Of a DNA stretch of 36,664 bases, positions 1 to 36,115 are shown piece after piece. The notes under the pieces were generated by a model. That model did no database searches. It was not told the DNA's origin and worked only from the letters and a program-made list of their open reading frames with translations. Positions within the stretch are counted from its first letter, which is position 1; every line of letters starts with the position of its first letter. This DNA comes from an uncultured Pseudomonadales bacterium (GTDB lineage: Bacteria; Patescibacteriota; Microgenomatia; UBA1400; RBG-16-45-19): NCBI GenBank assembly GCA_964554085.1, contig CAZKMY010000002.1, positions 1 through 36,664 on the forward strand, read 5' to 3'. A program made the translations under genes and the position numbers.

Positions 1-99
1 ACAAGATTGAAAAGACACTCGAGAAATACACGTACAGTACCACTCAGCGCCAACCTCTCATTCTACCCGTAATTATTGAGGTATAAATGTGCGGGAAAC

Positions 100-111
100 T
101 GTATCTTGTGT
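100..111 (+). repeat. Single-copy remnant of the CTTGT heptad family (TGTATCTTGTGT), 15 nt upstream of the ftsK start
   Basis: The 12-mer at 100-111 is identical to 2297-2308. The 10-mer TGTATCTTGT also occurs at 29403-29412. Confidence 0.5.
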
Positions 112-126
112 TAGGATAATCTCATC

Positions 127-2256
127 ATGGGTCGTAAACGTGGGCGCCGACGCGCCTTAAAGCTAAAACTGAAAAAAGAAACCCTCCTCTCCATCGTGAG
201 TTTGGGGTTTATTGTCACGGGCGTCCTGATGATAATCTCCTTTGCAGGTCAAGGAGCCTGGCTTGAGTCAATTCAAAATTATCTGGCCACCCATTTTGGC
301 TTTGCCGCACTCATTTTGCCCTTCATGTTCCTTTCTGCTGGTCTTATGTTGACACAACTGAAGTGGTTTATTGCCAAGCCCAACGTCTTTTTGGGGAGTG
401 TATTAGTATTTGCCGGATTGTTGGGAGTAGGTAAGGGTGGATCGGTTGGACAAGATATTTTTCTCAACCTCGCCGCCCTCATCATGCCTATCGGAGCCAC
501 CATTTTACTTATCGCCATCATGTTTTCCGGCATCATGATCATGACAGAATCATCTCTGGCAGAATGGCTCATCAAGATATCCAACATTCTTTCATTCCGC
601 CGCCGGTCCACTACGGTGGCCGGTTTGCAAAACGATAAGAAAAATTTCCCCCTTATGCCCGTAAAGACTGATCTCAAGATAAAGGGTGGACAAGTGAGTG
701 AGGTTGAACCAGCTACCGAGCCAGTCAAGCCTGCAAGTGAATCGCCTGCCAATGGGTCTGCTCCGGCCAGTACCGAACCTACTCACAGCTTGATTGTAAA
801 TAATCCAGGCGAAAATACTCATATTTATCAGCCGCCGTCAGTTGATTTACTTGATGCCAAGATGGGAGCTCCAGCTGACCGAGGCGATGTCAAAGGCAAT
901 GCGCACATAATTGAGGAAACGTTGGATTCATTCGGTATTCAAGCACATGTGGATGAAGCGAACCAAGGTCCCGCGGTTACCCAATACGCGCTCAATATCA
1001 AACGAGGCACGAAACTTTCCCGGATCACTGCCTTGCAAAATGATCTAGCCTTAGCTTTAGCCGCTCCCACGGGTCAAATCCGGATTGAAGCTCCTATCCC
1101 TGGACGTAATTTAGTAGGCATTGAAATCCCTAATCGTCGTCCAGAAATGGTCAGTTTACGCAAAATGGTTACCGCTCCGAATCTGAAAAAGACGTCAAGC
1201 AAAACTGCATTTGGATTGGGACTTAACGTGTCCGGTGAAGTGGTGGTGACCGACCTGACCAAGATGCCTCACGTCTTGATTGCGGGAGCTACGGGTTCCG
1301 GTAAATCTGTCTCTGTTAATGCCTTAATTATGCAAATTTTGTTCCGCGCCTCACCCGAAGAAGTAAAGTTTATGATGGTGGATCCCAAACGGGTAGAGTT
1401 GACGCAATACAATGGAATTCCTCATTTGATTTGTCCCGTCATTGTCGAACCAGACAAGGTGCTGAATGCGCTCAACTGGGCCGTCACGGAAATGAATAAC
1501 CGCTACAAGATGTTTGCTGAAGTCGGAGCTCGCAATATTGAAGGCTTCAACCAAATGGCCGCTTATCAATCCATTCCGTACATCGTCATTATTATCGATG
1601 AGTTGGCCGATATCATGCTGTTTGCTCCCGCAAAAGTTGAAGACGCCATCACTCGGTTAGCTCAAATGGCTCGGGCAGTTGGCATTCATCTTGTTCTGGC
1701 CACCCAGCGTCCTTCGGTAGACGTCTTGACGGGCTTGATTAAAGCCAACGTTCCTTGCCGCATTGCCTTCAACGTCACTTCCATGATCGATTCCCGCGTC
1801 ATCATTGATAGTCCGGGAGCCGAAAAGCTAATTGGTAAGGGAGATATGCTCTACATTCCTCCTGATCAATCCAAACCCTCCCGTATCCAAGGAGCGTATG
1901 TTTCCGAAGAAGAAGTAAAACGAGTCTTAGATTTCATCAAATCACAAACACCTGAAGTACACTACACTGAGGAAATCACTCAAAAAACGGGTCCAGGAGC
2001 CGTCATGGGTTCAGATGGACAGATGGAAGATGCCGATCCACTCTTTAATCAAGCAGTAGAACTGGTTGTTGCTAACCAAAAGGCCTCAGCCTCGTTATTT
2101 CAACGCCATCTTCAAATTGGGTATGCCCGAGCTGCCCGGGTCTTGGATCAATTGGAACATGCAGGGGTGGTTGGTCCCGGTGACGGAGCCAAACCCCGTA
2201 ATATTTTGGTCAAATCCATGGAAGAATGGAAAGCTAGACAGGTAAGTAACAAGTGA
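127..2256 (+). CDS. ftsK: DNA translocase FtsK/SpoIIIE
   Basis: 709-aa ORF with an N-terminal multi-TM region, Walker A GATGSGKS and Walker B IIIDELAD. The C-terminal gamma winged helix reads LFQRHLQIGYARAARVLDQLEHAGVVGP. Confidence 0.9.
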   Translation: MGRKRGRRRALKLKLKKETLLSIVSLGFIVTGVLMIISFAGQGAWLESIQNYLATHFGFAALILPFMFLSAGLMLTQLKWFIAKPNVFLGSVLVFAGLLGVGKGGSVGQDIFLNLAALIMPIGATILLIAIMFSGIMIMTESSLAEWLIKISNILSFRRRSTTVAGLQNDKKNFPLMPVKTDLKIKGGQVSEVEPATEPVKPASESPANGSAPASTEPTHSLIVNNPGENTHIYQPPSVDLLDAKMGAPADRGDVKGNAHIIEETLDSFGIQAHVDEANQGPAVTQYALNIKRGTKLSRITALQNDLALALAAPTGQIRIEAPIPGRNLVGIEIPNRRPEMVSLRKMVTAPNLKKTSSKTAFGLGLNVSGEVVVTDLTKMPHVLIAGATGSGKSVSVNALIMQILFRASPEEVKFMMVDPKRVELTQYNGIPHLICPVIVEPDKVLNALNWAVTEMNNRYKMFAEVGARNIEGFNQMAAYQSIPYIVIIIDELADIMLFAPAKVEDAITRLAQMARAVGIHLVLATQRPSVDVLTGLIKANVPCRIAFNVTSMIDSRVIIDSPGAEKLIGKGDMLYIPPDQSKPSRIQGAYVSEEEVKRVLDFIKSQTPEVHYTEEITQKTGPGAVMGSDGQMEDADPLFNQAVELVVANQKASASLFQRHLQIGYARAARVLDQLEHAGVVGPGDGAKPRNILVKSMEEWKARQVSNK

Positions 2257-2320
2257 CAAGCAACAAGAAACAAGAATACTCTTGTGACTTGTCTCTTGTA
2301 TCTTGTGTCTTATATCTATT
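2249..2320 (+). repeat. Heptad-phased inverted array: 4x ACAAG, centre AATACT, then 4x CTTGT plus two decayed units
   Basis: ACAAG occurs at 2249, 2256, 2263 and 2270. CTTGT occurs at 2281, 2288, 2295 and 2302, followed by CTTAT at 2309 and CTATT at 2316. The period is exactly 7 nt. The array overlaps the ftsK stop and abuts ATG 2321. Confidence 0.85.
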
Positions 2321-2962
2321 ATGAACACCGTTGGTGAATTATTAAAAACTGCCCGCCTCGAAAAAAACATCACTCTCGACCAAATTGCCACCTATACCAA
2401 AATCAGAAAAAAATATCTGGAAGCAATTGAAGCCAACGATTTTGGCAATCTGCCTTCCGCTGCGTTTACCAAAGGATTCTTGAATACCTATTCCAAAATC
2501 GTGGGAGTGAATGCTCAAACAGTCCTAGCCATTTTTCGCCGTGATTTTGACCAAGATGAACGAGGACATATTATTCCGCGGAGTCTGATTAATCCGGTTA
2601 AACCAGCCATGCCGGGGATTACTCCCTCCATGCTTACAGTGGGGCTCTCCATCATCGCAGGCATTCTCATCATGGGATTCTTTATTCGCCAGATCATTTT
2701 ATTTTCATCATCACCACCACTTGCCGTTGTTGAGCCAACCGAAAACGCCATTCTGATTTCACCGGTGGTTGTTCGGGGTACCACCGATCCTGAAGCAGTG
2801 GTAACTATTAATAATCGCTCAGTCAACGTGGGTCAAACCGGTGAATTCACCACGGACATCGTTCTTGATCCAGGTCAACACACCTTAGTCATCTCTTCCA
2901 CAGGGAGATCAGGTAAAAAAACCACGGTTGAGCGAGTCATTTATATCCAAACCGCCCCCTAA
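2321..2962 (+). CDS. RodZ-like helix-turn-helix membrane protein
   Basis: I chose ATG 2321 because the track start at 2303 is a TTG inside the repeat array. It has an N-terminal Xre-type HTH (GELLKTARLEKNITLDQIATYTKIRKKYLEAIE), one TM (LTVGLSIIAGILIMGFFI) and a beta-rich extracytoplasmic tail. No SD lies upstream. Confidence 0.6.
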   Translation: MNTVGELLKTARLEKNITLDQIATYTKIRKKYLEAIEANDFGNLPSAAFTKGFLNTYSKIVGVNAQTVLAIFRRDFDQDERGHIIPRSLINPVKPAMPGITPSMLTVGLSIIAGILIMGFFIRQIILFSSSPPLAVVEPTENAILISPVVVRGTTDPEAVVTINNRSVNVGQTGEFTTDIVLDPGQHTLVISSTGRSGKKTTVERVIYIQTAP

Positions 2963-3004
2963 CCATTATTGTTAGGAATAATACGTAAGTGCTACCATGG
3001 AACG

Positions 3005-4198
3005 ATGGATAGAGTAAGTAAAAACAAAAAATCTCCCCCAAAACATCGCAGGTTACCGAAACAAAAACCGAATTTAGTTACAACAACGTGGTTTTCCGCA
3101 CTAACAAAGATAAATAACGCTCCACTCATCGGACTCATAGTCGTATTTCTTGTAATCATTACTATCGGTTCTGTTATATATACAAAACTAACTTCATTCC
3201 AAAAACATACCTATCAAACCTCGAGATTAAACACAGAAAAAACGACAAAAATAAACACTACAACAGATAAAAAGTTAGATACTCAAACACACAGTGATAC
3301 GGGAAATTGGACACTTAAGAAAATTGCTTCAAATAAACAAACAACAATAGTTAGTTTGTCAAAATCAGACAGCAAACTTGTGAGTTGGGGAGATTATATT
3401 TTCTGGGTCGATCCTGCGTATACCGAAAATATCCAAGTAAAAAGCCTCAATCTTAAAACAGGTGAACAAAAAATTATTTACGATCAAAGTAAAAGAAAAC
3501 AAGATTTTCCAGAATCAATGAATAAAACGCATGATGACTACTATTCCATTGATATGGTGGTTATCGATAACACGTTATTCTTTTCTATCGGCGCATACCT
3601 CAACAATGGAGTAACGTATTATGTTGACTTACCTGTTATAGACAAGATAAATATATTGGCACGTTTTGATGGTTGGTTTGAGAAATGGGGGGGTGAAAAC
3701 TGGTTTGAATATGGATTTAGCGACGGATGTGGGGGATCTTCAACGTACGCATTACTAAATCTTGATAATAAGCAATATATTCCTATCACAACGATTAAGA
3801 GTTCATGTATTGGAGGGGAAGTTCGAGTAGACATTGACATTAAAAGAAGAATGTTGGTTGCTGGATATCGGCCAACAAGTGGTACAAACACTGATAATGG
3901 TTCAACCTATGAATATGTGTATGCAGTCCCTTTAGATAATCCAGGTACACAGGTGGGAATAATCTCAAAACAAGATATGCCCGCAGGGATTACTTCGGTT
4001 ACCTATGTTAGAGACACAGATAAATTATTGTTATCAGGTGAAACAAGCTATTTGTTTGATTTATCATCAAAAAGCATTTCAAAAACAAATTCTACCCCAC
4101 CCTCAATTCCAACAATTTCATCACAGGAAGAAACTCTTCAAACACAAATACAAAACATGCAATTACCCTCAGATTACAAGTGGGTTCAAGTAGAATAA
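3005..4198 (+). CDS. Hypothetical membrane-anchored extracytoplasmic protein (low-GC gene)
   Basis: Long ORF. The first ATG is at 3005, while the track start 2969 is a TTG without an SD. It has a basic N-terminus and one TM (LIGLIVVFLVIITIGSVIY), then a Thr/Lys-rich linker. The rest is an aromatic/Gly-rich beta-type domain (DYIFWVD, DNTLFFSIG). No family was recognised with confidence. Confidence 0.7.
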   Translation: MDRVSKNKKSPPKHRRLPKQKPNLVTTTWFSALTKINNAPLIGLIVVFLVIITIGSVIYTKLTSFQKHTYQTSRLNTEKTTKINTTTDKKLDTQTHSDTGNWTLKKIASNKQTTIVSLSKSDSKLVSWGDYIFWVDPAYTENIQVKSLNLKTGEQKIIYDQSKRKQDFPESMNKTHDDYYSIDMVVIDNTLFFSIGAYLNNGVTYYVDLPVIDKINILARFDGWFEKWGGENWFEYGFSDGCGGSSTYALLNLDNKQYIPITTIKSSCIGGEVRVDIDIKRRMLVAGYRPTSGTNTDNGSTYEYVYAVPLDNPGTQVGIISKQDMPAGITSVTYVRDTDKLLLSGETSYLFDLSSKSISKTNSTPPSIPTISSQEETLQTQIQNMQLPSDYKWVQVE

Positions 4199-4261
4199 TT
4201 GATTTCGTTTGACTTCTGAAGGTGGGTAGCTTATCTTGGAAGAACAAGAAAGGAATTGTCT

Positions 4262-10147: not shown

Positions 10148-10163
10148 AATACTTCCATCACAC

Positions 10164-10192
10164 TAGACCCTAAACCCTGAACCCTGTATCCT
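10164..10192 (+). repeat. Heptad array TAGACCC-TAAACCC-TGAACCC-TGTATCC abutting the Nudix start codon
   Basis: Four units in exact 7-nt phase at 10164, 10171, 10178 and 10185, then T and ATG 10193. The array is preceded by CACTAGA. There is no SD. Confidence 0.8.
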
Positions 10193-12416: not shown

Positions 12417-13142
12417 ATGACGTTATTCTGGATTATTCTTGCCAATGTAATCGTTAGTTTAGGCTCTTTAATCGGTGTAGTTACCCTGGCTATTAAAGAA
12501 TCAAACTTACAAAAAATCATCATGCTCCTGGTGTCATTTTCTGCTGGCACCATGATGGGTGGGGCTTTTTTGCACCTCATGCCCGAAGCAGCTGAATATT
12601 TGTCAACCCAAACCTTGCTTGCGGTCACCCTAGCTGCATTTATTGGCTTTTACTTCATTGAAAAACTGTTTTATTGGCGGCACTGCCATGATGGTCATTG
12701 CCATGAACATACATTTGGTTACATGAATTTACTTGGTGATGCGGTACATAACAGCATTGATGGATTACTACTTGCCGCCACATTTGTAACTGATTTTCGA
12801 TTGGGAGTGATCACCACTTTAGCCGTGGCTGCGCACGAAATTCCTCAAGAAATTGGAGATTTTGGTGTTCTGTTGCATGCCGGTTTCTCAAAGCGAAAAG
12901 CTATTTTTTCCAACCTGGCAGTTGCCATGACTGCGGTACTTGGTGGAATTGCAGGTTATTTCATTTCTTCAGCCAACAAAGATTTCGCTCCATACCTCTT
13001 ACCCATTGCTGCAGGCGGCTTTATCTATATCGGTGCCTCCGATCTACTTCCTGAAATGCGGAAAGAAACCAGCCGGGTGAAGTCATTTATTTCCTTCGGC
13101 TTGTATCTTTTGGGAATTGGCTTTATGCTGATGGTGGATTGA
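12417..13142 (+). CDS. ZIP family divalent-metal transporter (ZupT-like)
   Basis: A multi-TM protein with a His-rich loop (HCHDGHCHEH) and the ZIP signature HEIPQEIGDFGVLL. Confidence 0.85.
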   Translation: MTLFWIILANVIVSLGSLIGVVTLAIKESNLQKIIMLLVSFSAGTMMGGAFLHLMPEAAEYLSTQTLLAVTLAAFIGFYFIEKLFYWRHCHDGHCHEHTFGYMNLLGDAVHNSIDGLLLAATFVTDFRLGVITTLAVAAHEIPQEIGDFGVLLHAGFSKRKAIFSNLAVAMTAVLGGIAGYFISSANKDFAPYLLPIAAGGFIYIGASDLLPEMRKETSRVKSFISFGLYLLGIGFMLMVD

Positions 13143-24929: not shown

Positions 24930-24945
24930 ATTGGAAACAACACAA

Positions 24946-24972
24946 TCTCCCGGTCCTCAAAAAACCGGGAGA
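24946..24972 (+). terminator. Stem-loop 3' of tuf (8-bp stem TCTCCCGG / CCGGGAGA, 11-nt loop), no U-tract
   Basis: A perfect inverted repeat read directly, 17 nt after the tuf stop. With no T-run it may be an attenuator or a stabilising hairpin rather than a full terminator. Confidence 0.35.
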
Positions 24973-24999
24973 CTGTAGAAATAAATAGAAGAGGAAAGT

Positions 25000-29307: not shown

Positions 29308-29317
29308 GTCACTAGAT

Positions 29318-29429
29318 ACAAGTTACAAGAAATAAGATTAACGAAGGAGCAAGCAAAAAAAACATAACAAGATCATTTAACAACAAGTAATAACTTGTGT
29401 CTTGTATCTTGTCGCTTGTTACTACACAT
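29318..29429 (+). repeat. Heptad ACAAG/CTTGT element filling the 122-nt rpsC-rplP spacer
   Basis: ACAAG occurs at 29318 and 29325, a degenerate ATAAG at 29332, and further ACAAG at 29367 and 29383. After the loop TAATAA, CTTGT occurs at 29394, 29401, 29408 and 29415 in exact 7-nt phase, then TACTACACAT and ATG 29430. Confidence 0.85.
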
Positions 29430-31821: not shown

Positions 31822-31853
31822 TTACTAATAACTGAAACCTAAACCCTAAACAT
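31819..31853 (+). repeat. Heptad array TAATTAC-TAATAAC-TGAAACC-TAAACCC-TAAACAT abutting the rpsH start codon
   Basis: Five units in exact 7-nt phase at 31819, 31826, 31833, 31840 and 31847. The first unit contains the rpsN stop and the last ends at the base before ATG 31854. There is no SD. Confidence 0.75.
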
Positions 31854-34182: not shown

Positions 34183-35452
34183 AATCTTTCAGGAAATCAC
34201 CCTCGTACCCGAGCTTAAGAAAAAGCTCTTGTTTACTGCCGGCATCTTTGCCGCCTACCGTTTACTCGCACATATTCCGGTTCCCGGCGTCGATTTGGTG
34301 CAAATTAAAAGTCTTTTCTTACAAAATCAACTCCTCAGTCTTTTAAATATTTTTTCGGGTGGAACATTGGCAAATTTCTCCATTGCCGCTCTCAATCTGG
34401 GACCCTATATCAACGCCTCCATCATTATCCAATTGTTAACTATGGTGTTCCCCAAGCTTGAAGCCTTGAGTAAAGAGGGGGATTCAGGCCGTGAACAACT
34501 TGACTATTACACCCGATGCATCACGATTCCTTTGGCTATCATTCAGGCCATCGGCATCTATGCGCTCCTTACCAGCCAGCACTTGATTACAATTTCCTCT
34601 CCAGTCCAGACTGTTGGTGTAATTACCACGATGGTTGCAGGCACGATGCTACTCATGTGGTTTGGTGGCCTGATTACGCAATATGGCATTGGTAATGGTA
34701 CTTCCATGCTTATTTTTGCCGGTATCGTTTCGGCTTTGCCCGTGTCCTTGTTTAAAACCCTCTCAGTGTCAGATGCGGCTCAGCTATCCAGCTTACTTAT
34801 TTTTGTTGTTATTGGTATTGCGGTTATCACCGCCATCGTCTTCATGAATGAAGCATTGCGAAAAATTCCCGTCCACTATGCCCGTCGCTTACGCGGTTCA
34901 TCCAGTTTTGGCACGCAGTCTACTCACTTACCACTGCGCTTAAATCAGGCTGGCGTAATTCCTATCATCTTCGCGGTATCCCTTGTCATGATTCCTTCAC
35001 TCGCTGGTCGTTTCTTGACCGGCTCAGGCAACGCTCAATTGGTTGCTATCGGCAATTTCTTTGCCACTCATTTCACTCCTCAATCATTGGCATACAATCT
35101 CACCTATTTCATCCTAGTCTTAGGATTTACCTATTTTTACACCGCGGTTGTCTTTGATCCTGAAAAAATTGCCGACGAAATCAAGAAAAATGGCGGTTTT
35201 GTCCCTGGCATACGTCCGGGAAAAGCTACCGTTAGTTATCTCAACTATGTCTTAATTCGTATCACCTTAATGGGAGCGATCTTTTTAGGATTAATCGCGA
35301 TTCTGCCTGCCTTGGCTCAGGTAGTTACGGGCGTCACCTCACTAACACTGGGAGGTACCGGTATTCTTATCGTGGTATCCGTCATTTTGGAGACCAGCAA
35401 GCAAGTTGAAGCACTGTTGGTGATGAAAAATTACGATCGGTTCCTGAGTTAG
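34166..35452 (+). CDS. secY: Preprotein translocase subunit SecY
   Basis: GTG 34166 lies 11 nt after the SD TAGGAGG and overlaps rplO by 17 nt. The protein has the 10-TM SecY pattern ([12 protein letters not shown]; [13 protein letters not shown]; [13 protein letters not shown]). Confidence 0.95.
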
Positions 35453-35454
35453 TT

Positions 35455-35508
35455 ACAAGCCAGAAGCGGTTCCGGTGTCCACCGGAATGACTTGTGTCTT
35501 GTAACTAC
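35455..35508 (+). repeat. Short copy of the ACAAG/CTTGT element enclosing a GC-rich hairpin, 3' of secY
   Basis: The left arm is ACAAG at 35455 and AGAAG at 35462. The inner hairpin is TTCCGGTG-tc-CACCGGAA (35470-35487). The right arm is CTTGT at 35491 and 35498, followed by AACTAC. Confidence 0.8.
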
Positions 35509-35542
35509 TATCATCATTCAAATGATTGAAAGGAATCATTCG

Positions 35543-36115
35543 ATGAAAATAATCTTAATCGGCATCCAAGGAGCCGGCAAATCAACACAAGGTAATCTCC
35601 TCCTCGAGAAGTTACGTTTACCCTACTTAAGTAGCGGTCATATTTTCCGGGAAATCTCCAAAGAAAAAACCCCCTGGGGACGATACGTCAAAGAAACGGT
35701 CAATTCTGGCGCCCTTATTCCAGATGAAAAGACCGTCAAAATTATTGAAGAATATCTTTCTAAACCCGAATACAAAAAAGGATATATCCTGGATGGATTC
35801 CCCCGCACCGTACCTCAAGCCAAAGCCTTCAGTAATGGTGTAGATATGGTGGTATATCTTGAAGTGTCAGACAAGGAAGCGCTATGGCGTCTATCCGGTC
35901 GCCGTGACGAGGGCGTACGCGAAGACAACACGCTTACCGCCATCCGCAAACGCATCGAATCATTCCACACCTTTACCATGCCGGTCCTTTCCTATTACAA
36001 GCGCAAAGGATTACTTCACTCAATTGATGGTGAAAAATCAATCCAAGATATTCATCGCGATATCATGGAACGGGTGAAAATGATTCAAGCCGCTTCCAAA
36101 TTAAACACAAAATAA
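35543..36115 (+). CDS. adk: Adenylate kinase (short-LID type)
   Basis: ATG 35543 begins MKIILIGIQGAGKSTQG (P-loop) and follows the SD GAAAGGA. It also has LDGFPRT. The LID region is only GRRDEGVREDN and has no Cys4 zinc lid. The track start at 35492 is a TTG inside the repeat. Confidence 0.9.
   Translation: MKIILIGIQGAGKSTQGNLLLEKLRLPYLSSGHIFREISKEKTPWGRYVKETVNSGALIPDEKTVKIIEEYLSKPEYKKGYILDGFPRTVPQAKAFSNGVDMVVYLEVSDKEALWRLSGRRDEGVREDNTLTAIRKRIESFHTFTMPVLSYYKRKGLLHSIDGEKSIQDIHRDIMERVKMIQAASKLNTK

Follow-up and report, generated by a model that had tools for sequence, protein, structure and literature searches.

Heptad-phased hairpins at operon junctions of an uncultured Microgenomates-type bacterium as a likely lineage-specific palindromic repeat family

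The stretch of DNA analysed here (hereafter the window) comprises positions 1 to 36,664 of contig CAZKMY010000002.1 (assembly GCA_964554085.1), from an uncultured bacterium placed by GTDB among the Microgenomatia of the Patescibacteriota. It is one co-directional gene block that runs from ftsK through a RodZ-like helix-turn-helix gene, alaS, sortase, NUDIX, ruvX, mltG, rpoB/C and the str, S10 and spc genes to secY and adk. The ftsK open reading frame (ORF; 127..2256, + strand, as are all hairpins and arrays placed below) encodes FtsK domains, and the RodZ-like gene (2321..2962, +) encodes a 213-aa protein with an HTH_25 domain, whose start at 2321 is backed by 213-aa homologues and whose protein kin come from Microgenomates-group candidate-phyla bacteria. 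The spacer between these two genes holds an inverted array of 7-nt units, referred to here as site A, that is predicted to fold into a segmented hairpin (2242..2313). Intergenic spacers in the window are mostly 2-30 nt long, and several of the longest are heptad elements.

The 5' arm of site A (2249..2274) consists of four ACAAG pentamers at 2249, 2256, 2263 and 2270, in 7-nt phase and separated by the spacers TG, CA and AA; the ftsK stop codon TGA (2254..2256) lies within it. The centre, AATACT (2275..2280), is followed by the 3' arm (2281..2306), with four CTTGT pentamers in the same phase at 2281, 2288, 2295 and 2302 and the spacers GA, CT and AT. Two decayed units, CTTAT (2309) and CTATT (2316), fill positions 2309..2320 and lead directly into the ATG at 2321. 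RNAfold predicts five helices separated by four 2x2 internal loops: a 6-bp apical helix, formed with the outer A/T pair of the centre and closed by an AUAC tetraloop, three 5-bp ACAAG/CUUGU helices, and a basal helix in which CUUAU (2309) pairs with GUAAG (2242-2246). Seven single-stranded nucleotides, AUCUAUU, then remain before the start codon. The hairpin has a dG of -29.9 kcal/mol (z = -4.96), and as single-stranded DNA both strands give like folds. A first-pass annotation, made from the letters alone, had placed all of these repeats and the ATG at exactly these positions, with the array overlapping the ftsK stop, and had proposed a segmented stem in which the pentamer and its phase are kept and the spacers are not. 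Both proposals agree with the predicted fold: the spacers are non-pairing at 8/8 positions, and randomly placed arm mismatches would essentially never land in the spacer slots alone.

Base composition was also considered. The single pentamer is not over-represented in the window (90 observed vs 77.8 expected), whereas, counting both strands, there are 11 copies of its 7-nt phased dimer, ACAAGNNACAAG, vs 0.09 expected, and 0/100 shuffles reach 11. Tandem Repeats Finder reports period 7 on both site A arms, and lag-7 autocorrelation is 0.65 (P <= 0.0005). The site A pattern is real and robust.

Two other junctions in the window carry inverted heptad arrays. Site B, in the S3-L16 spacer (29311..29424), has a 5' arm of ACTAG/ACAAG/ACAAG/ATAAG and a 3' arm of four CTTGT units around an interior of ~56 nt, which holds an apical mini-hairpin (ACAAG-UAAUAA-CUUGU). 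Site C (TAGTTACAAG...CTTGTAACTA), in the secY-adk spacer (35447..35509), starts at the stop codon of secY, and its apical stem (35469-35488) is GC-rich. All three sites share the terminal motifs TAG-N-TTACAAG ... CTTGT-N-A-CTA, and sites B and C also share a 14-nt stretch, ACTTGTGTCTTGTA, which together suggest a copy relationship; because the elements are palindromic, the orientation of A and B relative to C is ambiguous. Sites B and C correspond to two of the three related copies that the first-pass annotation had listed, at 29318-29429 and 35455-35508. The third, at 100-111, is a lone pentamer within a conserved promoter-like motif, TATCTTGTG(T/A)TAGGAT (window 96-113), and was therefore rejected as a member of the family. 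That motif lies upstream of ftsK, looks in its sequence like an extended -10 type promoter, and is kept in three species even where the upstream gene is a different one.

Exact-protein look-ups of the window RodZ and FtsK gave no match, and relatives were reached through homologues (the loci fetched carry L numbers below). The sister species is 89% identical to the window in RodZ, 96% in L16 and 76-87% in nucleotide sequence overall, and 48% of four-fold degenerate sites differ. At its ftsK-rodZ junction (L001, L002) the stop codon and the ATG are 3 nt apart, TAAccTATG, and the whole of site A is missing; L005, a separate lineage with 90% RodZ identity, has the same empty junction. The S3-L16 junction of the sister species (L129) is likewise only 5 nt long, TAAccaatATG, and site B is missing there, as it is from all other relatives examined, including L727. 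Because they are missing from the sister species, sites A and B are read as recent insertions into ancestrally tight junctions, and the divergence at four-fold sites implies that the splits are old and the gains clean. The strain contigs recovered, 5 for site A and 9 for site B, come from different sequencing runs, show 98-100% nucleotide identity and do not differ at these sites, and neither site is therefore an assembly artefact. Comparison of filled and empty sites thus shows that A and B were gained after the split from the sister species and became fixed in the host species, the insertion of site A converting a 3-nt stop-start junction into a 64-nt spacer. The junctions that were hit were presumably translationally coupled beforehand. 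The first-pass annotation had proposed aligning orthologous spacers to see whether pentamer and phase are conserved. The sister species lacks site A and the S3-L16 copy alike, and neither a conserved regulatory platform nor the functional roles listed in that annotation are supported at site A.

On balance we favor the view that site A was recently acquired as one copy of a lineage-specific palindromic repeat family built from ACAAGNN/NNCTTGT, akin to the short tandemly repeated repetitive (STRR) and repetitive extragenic palindromic (REP) sequences of other bacteria. By the same comparison of orthologous junctions, its two sister copies, B and C, stand in other operon junctions that were ancestrally tight. 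Apart from site C, no further ACAAG heptads were found in roughly 250 kb of relatives' loci. The site A copy is probably neutral or nearly so. As to its origin, slippage plus template switching seeded on a native ACAAACAA, or copying from a C-like master, are candidates. Both empty sites carry a native ACAAACAA...TAACC adjoining the insertion point and neither filled site shows a target-site duplication or a transposase, so that microhomology seeding or slippage with template switching is possible; the 5' boundary of site A is blurred by a native AACAAA.

A purely local origin would need no copying at all: A, B and C would be unrelated microsatellites, each grown by independent 7-nt slippage in situ and of no consequence. 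Slippage of heptamers has been proposed in work cited in PMC4679880 and PMC4692102, 7-nt expansions of differing units occur at many junctions (at S14-S8, 2 units in the sister species vs 5 here), and the native ACAAACAA adjoins both empty sites. However, the units of the hairpins are not identical, with spacers that differ in every unit, and both arms are found, inverted, at three sites that share terminal motifs and, for B and C, the 14-nt stretch. No variation in unit number or length was seen among the strain contigs (5 for site A, 9 for site B), and site C is conserved across three species. We regard a purely local origin as very improbable.

Site C is the older copy. Both the sister species (L129) and a third, more distant one (L729; RodZ 59%) have it, and it is absent from L727, L730 and more distant relatives, in which the secY-adk gap is 0-22 nt. 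A search for its invariant arm across all 731 fetched loci returned known sites only. In the 3' arm, ACTTGTGTCTTGTAACTAC, none of the 19 positions varies among the three species. The 5' arm has four substitutions, three of them at paired positions, where A-U or C-G becomes G-U or U-G, while the fourth restores pairing at a mismatch. Unrelated sequences have taken the place of the apical stem and adopt the same fold, and in the heptad helix 98% of cells pair across the three species vs 32-51% in slid controls. The G-U-compatible changes point to structure in the sense-strand RNA, a reading that three sequences suggest rather than prove. The family can apparently become a constrained sense-strand RNA element, given that site C is conserved with pairing-preserving changes, and to this extent the first-pass annotation, which had listed candidate roles at the RNA level, gains support. 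Between window and sister species the site C arms are identical at 40/40 positions, above the intergenic average; intergenic spacers in general show 80-96% identity vs 52% at four-fold sites, and constraint is therefore not unique to site C.

These data bear on the suggestion that site A is a selected intercistronic RNA element that sets the ftsK:rodZ ratio as a processing, stability or attenuation signal, acting as a REP-like barrier to 3' exonucleases, as a site for RNase III or another RNase, or as a non-canonical terminator. A strong hairpin lies exactly between the cistrons, the secY-adk copy has been kept in three species through structure-preserving changes, and intergenic spacers are generally constrained. 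The order ACAAG-5'/CTTGT-3' also prevails by ~16 to 2 among the matches listed in the database scan described below, and the descending arm would be U-rich in either direction of transcription. Against this, the sister species has neither A nor B and copes with abutting genes, and terminating or cleaving the transcript between S3 and L16, in an essential operon, would be costly. Helices of 5 bp that are broken every 7 nt are moreover a poor RNase III substrate. A scan for sigma-70 promoters and terminators found nothing specific at sites A, B or C, with totals equal to those of shuffles, and called no terminator-like site. An intrinsic (rho-independent) terminator was rejected, there being no call at any of the three hairpins, with their AT-rich and interrupted stems; for site A the first-pass annotation had reached the same view. 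A 17-bp GC-containing hairpin in the tuf-S10 spacer (window 24941-24977), evidently a boundary structure and conserved in the sister species with a variable loop, also has no U-tract on the sense strand; the negative terminator scan is therefore weak evidence, and the terminators of this organism may be non-canonical. Taken together, a selected element at site A is possible but unlikely.

In addition to the hairpins, the host species carries direct heptamer arrays. One, ACCCTAA ACCCTGA ACCCTGT ATCCT (10167..10192), ends at the NUDIX ATG; a second, CTAATTA CTAATAA CTGAAAC CTAAACC CTAAACA (31822..31853), lies before the S8 ATG; and a third, ACTAATT ACTATTT ACTAAGA ACCAACA ACTAACC, precedes S4 on a strain contig that runs past the window (L717:8997-9034). 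In all, ~42 kb of the host species contain six 7-periodic spacers. Relative to the sister species, in which the NUDIX start overlaps the sortase stop, the window lineage gained 45 nt that include the ACCCT array; its S14-S8 array exceeds that of the sister species by 21 nt (3 units), and it also gained a heptamer array at the S11-S4 junction. The three kinds of array, ACCCTnn (window 10148-10192), CTAAnnn and ACTAnnn, are G-poor and wholly unstructured (dG 0.0 for the first two), end at the starts of genes that lack a Shine-Dalgarno (SD) motif (NUDIX, S8 and S4) and resemble published TAACTGA repeats; the S8 array itself contains TAACTGA.

SD-like motifs were found, by a lax test, at about 23/42 window starts, so that the first-pass statement that most genes have one was too strong; the absence of such a motif before the RodZ-like gene, which it had also noted, was seen here as well. 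Genes right behind heptad arrays have an SD-like motif in 0/4 cases vs 23/38 for the others. This difference is what an SD-independent standby site or translation enhancer would predict, in which the pyrimidine-rich CTTGT/CTTAT run before the AUG recruits ribosomes, and the open, G-poor direct arrays and the parallel with TAACTGA repeats (PMC4679880) point the same way. The genes, however, were without SD before the insertions, and the sister species relies on stop-start proximity. No ribosome-binding site was thus displaced by the arrays, rodZ, L16, NUDIX and S8 all having lacked an SD beforehand. The CTTGT arm of site A would be locked in a hairpin of about -30 kcal/mol with 7 nt free before the AUG, and site C is followed by adk's own SD in a separate hairpin. 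We accordingly give hardly any credence to a standby function. The adk hairpin (AAUGAUU/AAUCAUU, window 35516-35543) is small, shows the SD AAGGA in its loop, and is conserved in three species with two compensatory pairs.

A different role for the phase would be as a platform for an oligomeric nucleic-acid-binding protein that contacts one pentamer per 7 nt, either on RNA (a cold-shock-domain, S1 or KH protein) or on DNA (an omega-type ribbon-helix-helix protein polymerising on heptads). In ~20 units over the three sites the pentamer is perfectly kept and the 2-nt spacers are free, none of the 8 spacer positions pairs (P about 0.02), three species share an unchanged CTTGT arm at site C, and the same candidates have been put forward for the TAACTGA repeats (PMC4679880). 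On the other hand, the copies are recent gains rather than conserved sites, the pentamers are base-paired in the folded RNA and not single-stranded, and the sites lie inside operons and not at promoters. No candidate protein was identified. Equivalent junctions here and in relatives carry unrelated heptamers (ACCCTnn, CTAAnnn and ACTAnnn here, others in relatives), which would need many readers and which disfavors a reader specific for ACAAG/CTTGT. A platform of this kind is, in our judgement, quite unlikely. A phased RNA operator of the TRAP/HutP type was also considered and set aside, the pentamers being base-paired in the minimum-free-energy fold and site A not being conserved with rodZ.

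If site A is a tolerated repeat copy, as we favor, its position suggests how it could be borne. The element would be co-transcribed with ftsK-rodZ and would fold as a 72-nt segmented hairpin, and at both A and B the stop codon of the upstream gene would be enclosed in the hairpin base, with 5-7 nt left between the hairpin and the downstream AUG. On terminating at the end of ftsK, ribosomes would open the lower helices and the 5' arm, which would free the 3' arm and the start region; refolding would then restore stop-start proximity, and the coupling of SD-less downstream genes would persist. Persistence of coupling would allow such insertions to be tolerated, even inside the S10 operon.

Several points weigh against the repeat-family interpretation. 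Neither the A nor the B junction shows a target-site duplication when filled and empty sites are compared, no transposase or clear element boundary was found, and the genome of the host species was covered over ~42 kb. The coupling mechanism just outlined is itself inferred throughout. In addition, site A combines, although young, perfect pentamers (40/40 nt) with spacers that fail to pair at 8/8 positions, a pattern that slippage plus random mutation does not predict; it may reflect selection for the pentamer, or against uninterrupted pairing. The invariance of the site C 3' arm beside a changed 5' arm similarly suggests a sequence-specific constraint beyond the hairpin. The perfect pentamers, this invariant arm and the ~16:2 order of the arms (among matches listed) keep alive the ideas of a sequence-specific reader and of selection against continuous double-stranded RNA or perfect palindromes.

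The 7-nt phase extends well beyond ACAAG. In ribosomal-protein operons of relatives, junctions are mostly 0-20 nt with sporadic expansions, and among 18 distinct expanded operon spacers of >= 40 nt, lag 7 gives the strongest autocorrelation in 10 (binomial P = 2e-6). Several of these spacers are hairpins with mismatches every 7 nt, and the units are lineage-specific (TTGGTCA/GACTAAC, AAATTTC, TGTTAAA, GAGTTTC, CTAAACC, AATTTGA and ACTAAGG). Where spacers have expanded in this bacterial group, they have thus most often done so by insertions with 7-nt periodicity; the phase is the general feature and ACAAG only the unit of the host species. One relative (L140) has five 7-periodic ribosomal-protein junctions (S19-L22, S3-L16, S17-L14, L14-L24 and S8-L6), of which three are hairpins with a mismatch every 7 nt, including an independent heptad hairpin in S3-L16; its TTGGTCA units are identical to the cyanobacterial STRR2 heptamer. 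In one Microgenomates lineage a repeated cassette, (T)CGACTGAAAGGAG, occurs at three junctions (S3-L16 and S14-S8 in L146, L23-L2 in L147), where it supplies an SD in a small hairpin and adjoins palindromic or heptad inserts; its recurrence suggests mobile spacer modules that carry a ribosome-binding site.

A scan for (CTTGTNN)4 in genomes of 185,579 species gave at least 120 matches across many phyla. Control patterns run on viral contigs were similarly common (CTGTT, at least 120; TCGTT, 74; period 8, 111; period 6, at least 120), and many of the genome matches listed are perfect simple repeats or lie inside ORFs. This breadth is therefore generic tandem-repeat background, and a pan-bacterial ACAAG element was rejected. 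Among the matches listed (L009-L128), arrays within ~150 nt of each other occur in the order ACAAG-then-CTTGT at ~16 loci and in the reverse order at 2, and in these loci the arms are usually fully complementary, spacers included. One Patescibacteria locus (L044:3228-3707) is a perfect inverted duplication of ~480 nt whose arms hold (ACAAGAT)4 and (CCGACAT)5, and could be a genuine long palindrome or an assembly artefact.

A more ambitious interpretation would take the heptad hairpins and their single-arm relatives as functional intercistronic RNA modules of candidate-phyla bacteria that spread, by being copied, into stop-start junctions, where they would serve as ribosome-unzippable couplers or as landing sites for an oligonucleotide-binding (OB)-fold protein with a 7-nt footprint; the pentamer would be under selection and the spacer kept unpaired to avoid long double-stranded RNA. 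If true, it would explain the long-noted excess of heptamers in bacterial intergenic DNA; we consider it rather improbable.

Other features of the window are recorded briefly. Rfam 15 gave no match over the whole window at the gathering score nor at E <= 1, and a tRNA search of the window found none. A 1.24-kb low-GC (36%) insertion with a 409-aa ORF (window 2961-4199) is present in this strain only, being absent from strains 98-99% identical (L007, L008 and L703) and from the sister species; its ORF was assigned to no family by Pfam, NCBIfam or PADLOC. A ZIP/ZupT-like transporter gene (window 12417-13142) is shared with L005 and absent in L001, and a PNPOx-like gene between RNase J and ftsK in L001 (7455-7817) is absent here and in L005.

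The heptamer excess in bacterial intergenic DNA has been known since 2007 and STRR since about 1990, neither with an established function or generating mechanism. The locus described here is a clean natural experiment in a very compact genome, with dated gains of 7-periodic hairpins where genes had abutted or overlapped, including in the essential S10/spc operon. One older copy shows RNA-level constraint, and simple slippage does not account for the pattern of kept pentamers and free spacers. The junctions illustrate how small genomes tolerate, or perhaps exploit, insertions between translationally coupled genes, and they provide a set for metatranscriptomic study of coupling, processing and protein binding. 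They also carry a warning for annotation, in that such hairpins may be lineage-specific repeats rather than conserved regulators.

Among known systems, bacterial MITEs (miniature transposable elements with inverted repeats), such as Correia/NEMIS of Neisseria and the Rickettsia palindromic elements (RPE), are short non-coding palindromic insertions that are polymorphic between relatives, co-transcribed with the genes beside them and tolerated in reduced genomes; they are marked by defined terminal inverted repeats, by target-site duplications and by a transposase family cognate to them, and their arms are not phased heptads. The family described here resembles them in its complementary arms and in its presence or absence between relatives, with empty sites in the sister species, and differs in the lack of target-site duplications at the A and B junctions and of a detected transposase. 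Operators of the omega (ribbon-helix-helix) repressor of plasmid pSM19035 lie in promoter or centromere DNA and consist of contiguous 7-bp units, direct or inverted, whose core is conserved and whose edges vary. The heptad geometry of the site A family fits this description; the sites, however, lie inside chromosomal operons with no promoter predicted, and the G-U changes at site C point to RNA.

REP sequences and their composites (bacterial interspersed mosaic elements and REPINs) are GC-rich palindromes of 20-40 bp with an unpaired GTAG or CGTC tag, associated with REP-associated tyrosine transposases, or RAYTs (PMC3733652). Like them, the elements described here are small palindromes between co-directional genes, downstream of coding regions, that are predicted to form RNA hairpins, can pair into larger structures and were gained in a lineage-specific manner. 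They differ in being 60-115 nt long, AT-rich and 7-nt periodic, and in that no RAYT is known for them; none (Y1) is encoded in the ~42 kb of host-species genome. Identity with GTAG-tagged REPs was rejected on size and because the GTAG-like ends, GTAAG and, at B and C, a reverse-strand GTAG, are paired within the stem.

The TAACTGA direct repeats of marine Beggiatoaceae (MacGregor 2015) lie a few nucleotides upstream of starts, often in ribosomal-protein operons, before genes without a recognisable ribosome-binding site; they are absent from close relatives, and S1, cold-shock proteins (Csp) and CsrA have been proposed as readers (PMC4679880). In them a single heptamer recurs perfectly and in direct orientation, inverted sets being all but absent, whereas site A is inverted and folds, and the direct ACCCTnn, CTAAnnn and ACTAnnn arrays are the closer analogues. 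Heptamer repeats are over-represented more generally, and are also found just upstream of start codons inside ribosomal-protein operons (PMC4679880, PMC4692102). In the accounts given in these two papers, long simple sequence repeats (LSSR; Mrazek et al. 2007), cyanobacterial STRR and the Xanthomonas GGGAATC repeats are intergenic 7-nt tandem arrays scattered over the genome, with lineage-specific units (PMC4692102, PMC4679880), and the GGGAATC arrays include inverted pairs able to form stem-loops (PMC4692102). Site A shares with LSSR and STRR its 7-nt tandem units beyond chance, its intergenic position and its dispersal at several loci. It differs in its imperfect units (5 fixed and 2 free positions), short arrays (2-5 units) and inverted arms that give a segmented hairpin, and in its host, a Microgenomates-type candidate-phyla bacterium with a tiny, compact genome; simple near-identical units and strain variability in unit number are not seen, while between species the S14-S8 unit number does differ. 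On the best reading, the site A family falls in the intergenic heptanucleotide repeat class (LSSR/STRR) and behaves like the small palindromes of the REP/MITE type, adding to a known, still unexplained kind of repeat an example with an unusually clean evolutionary record.

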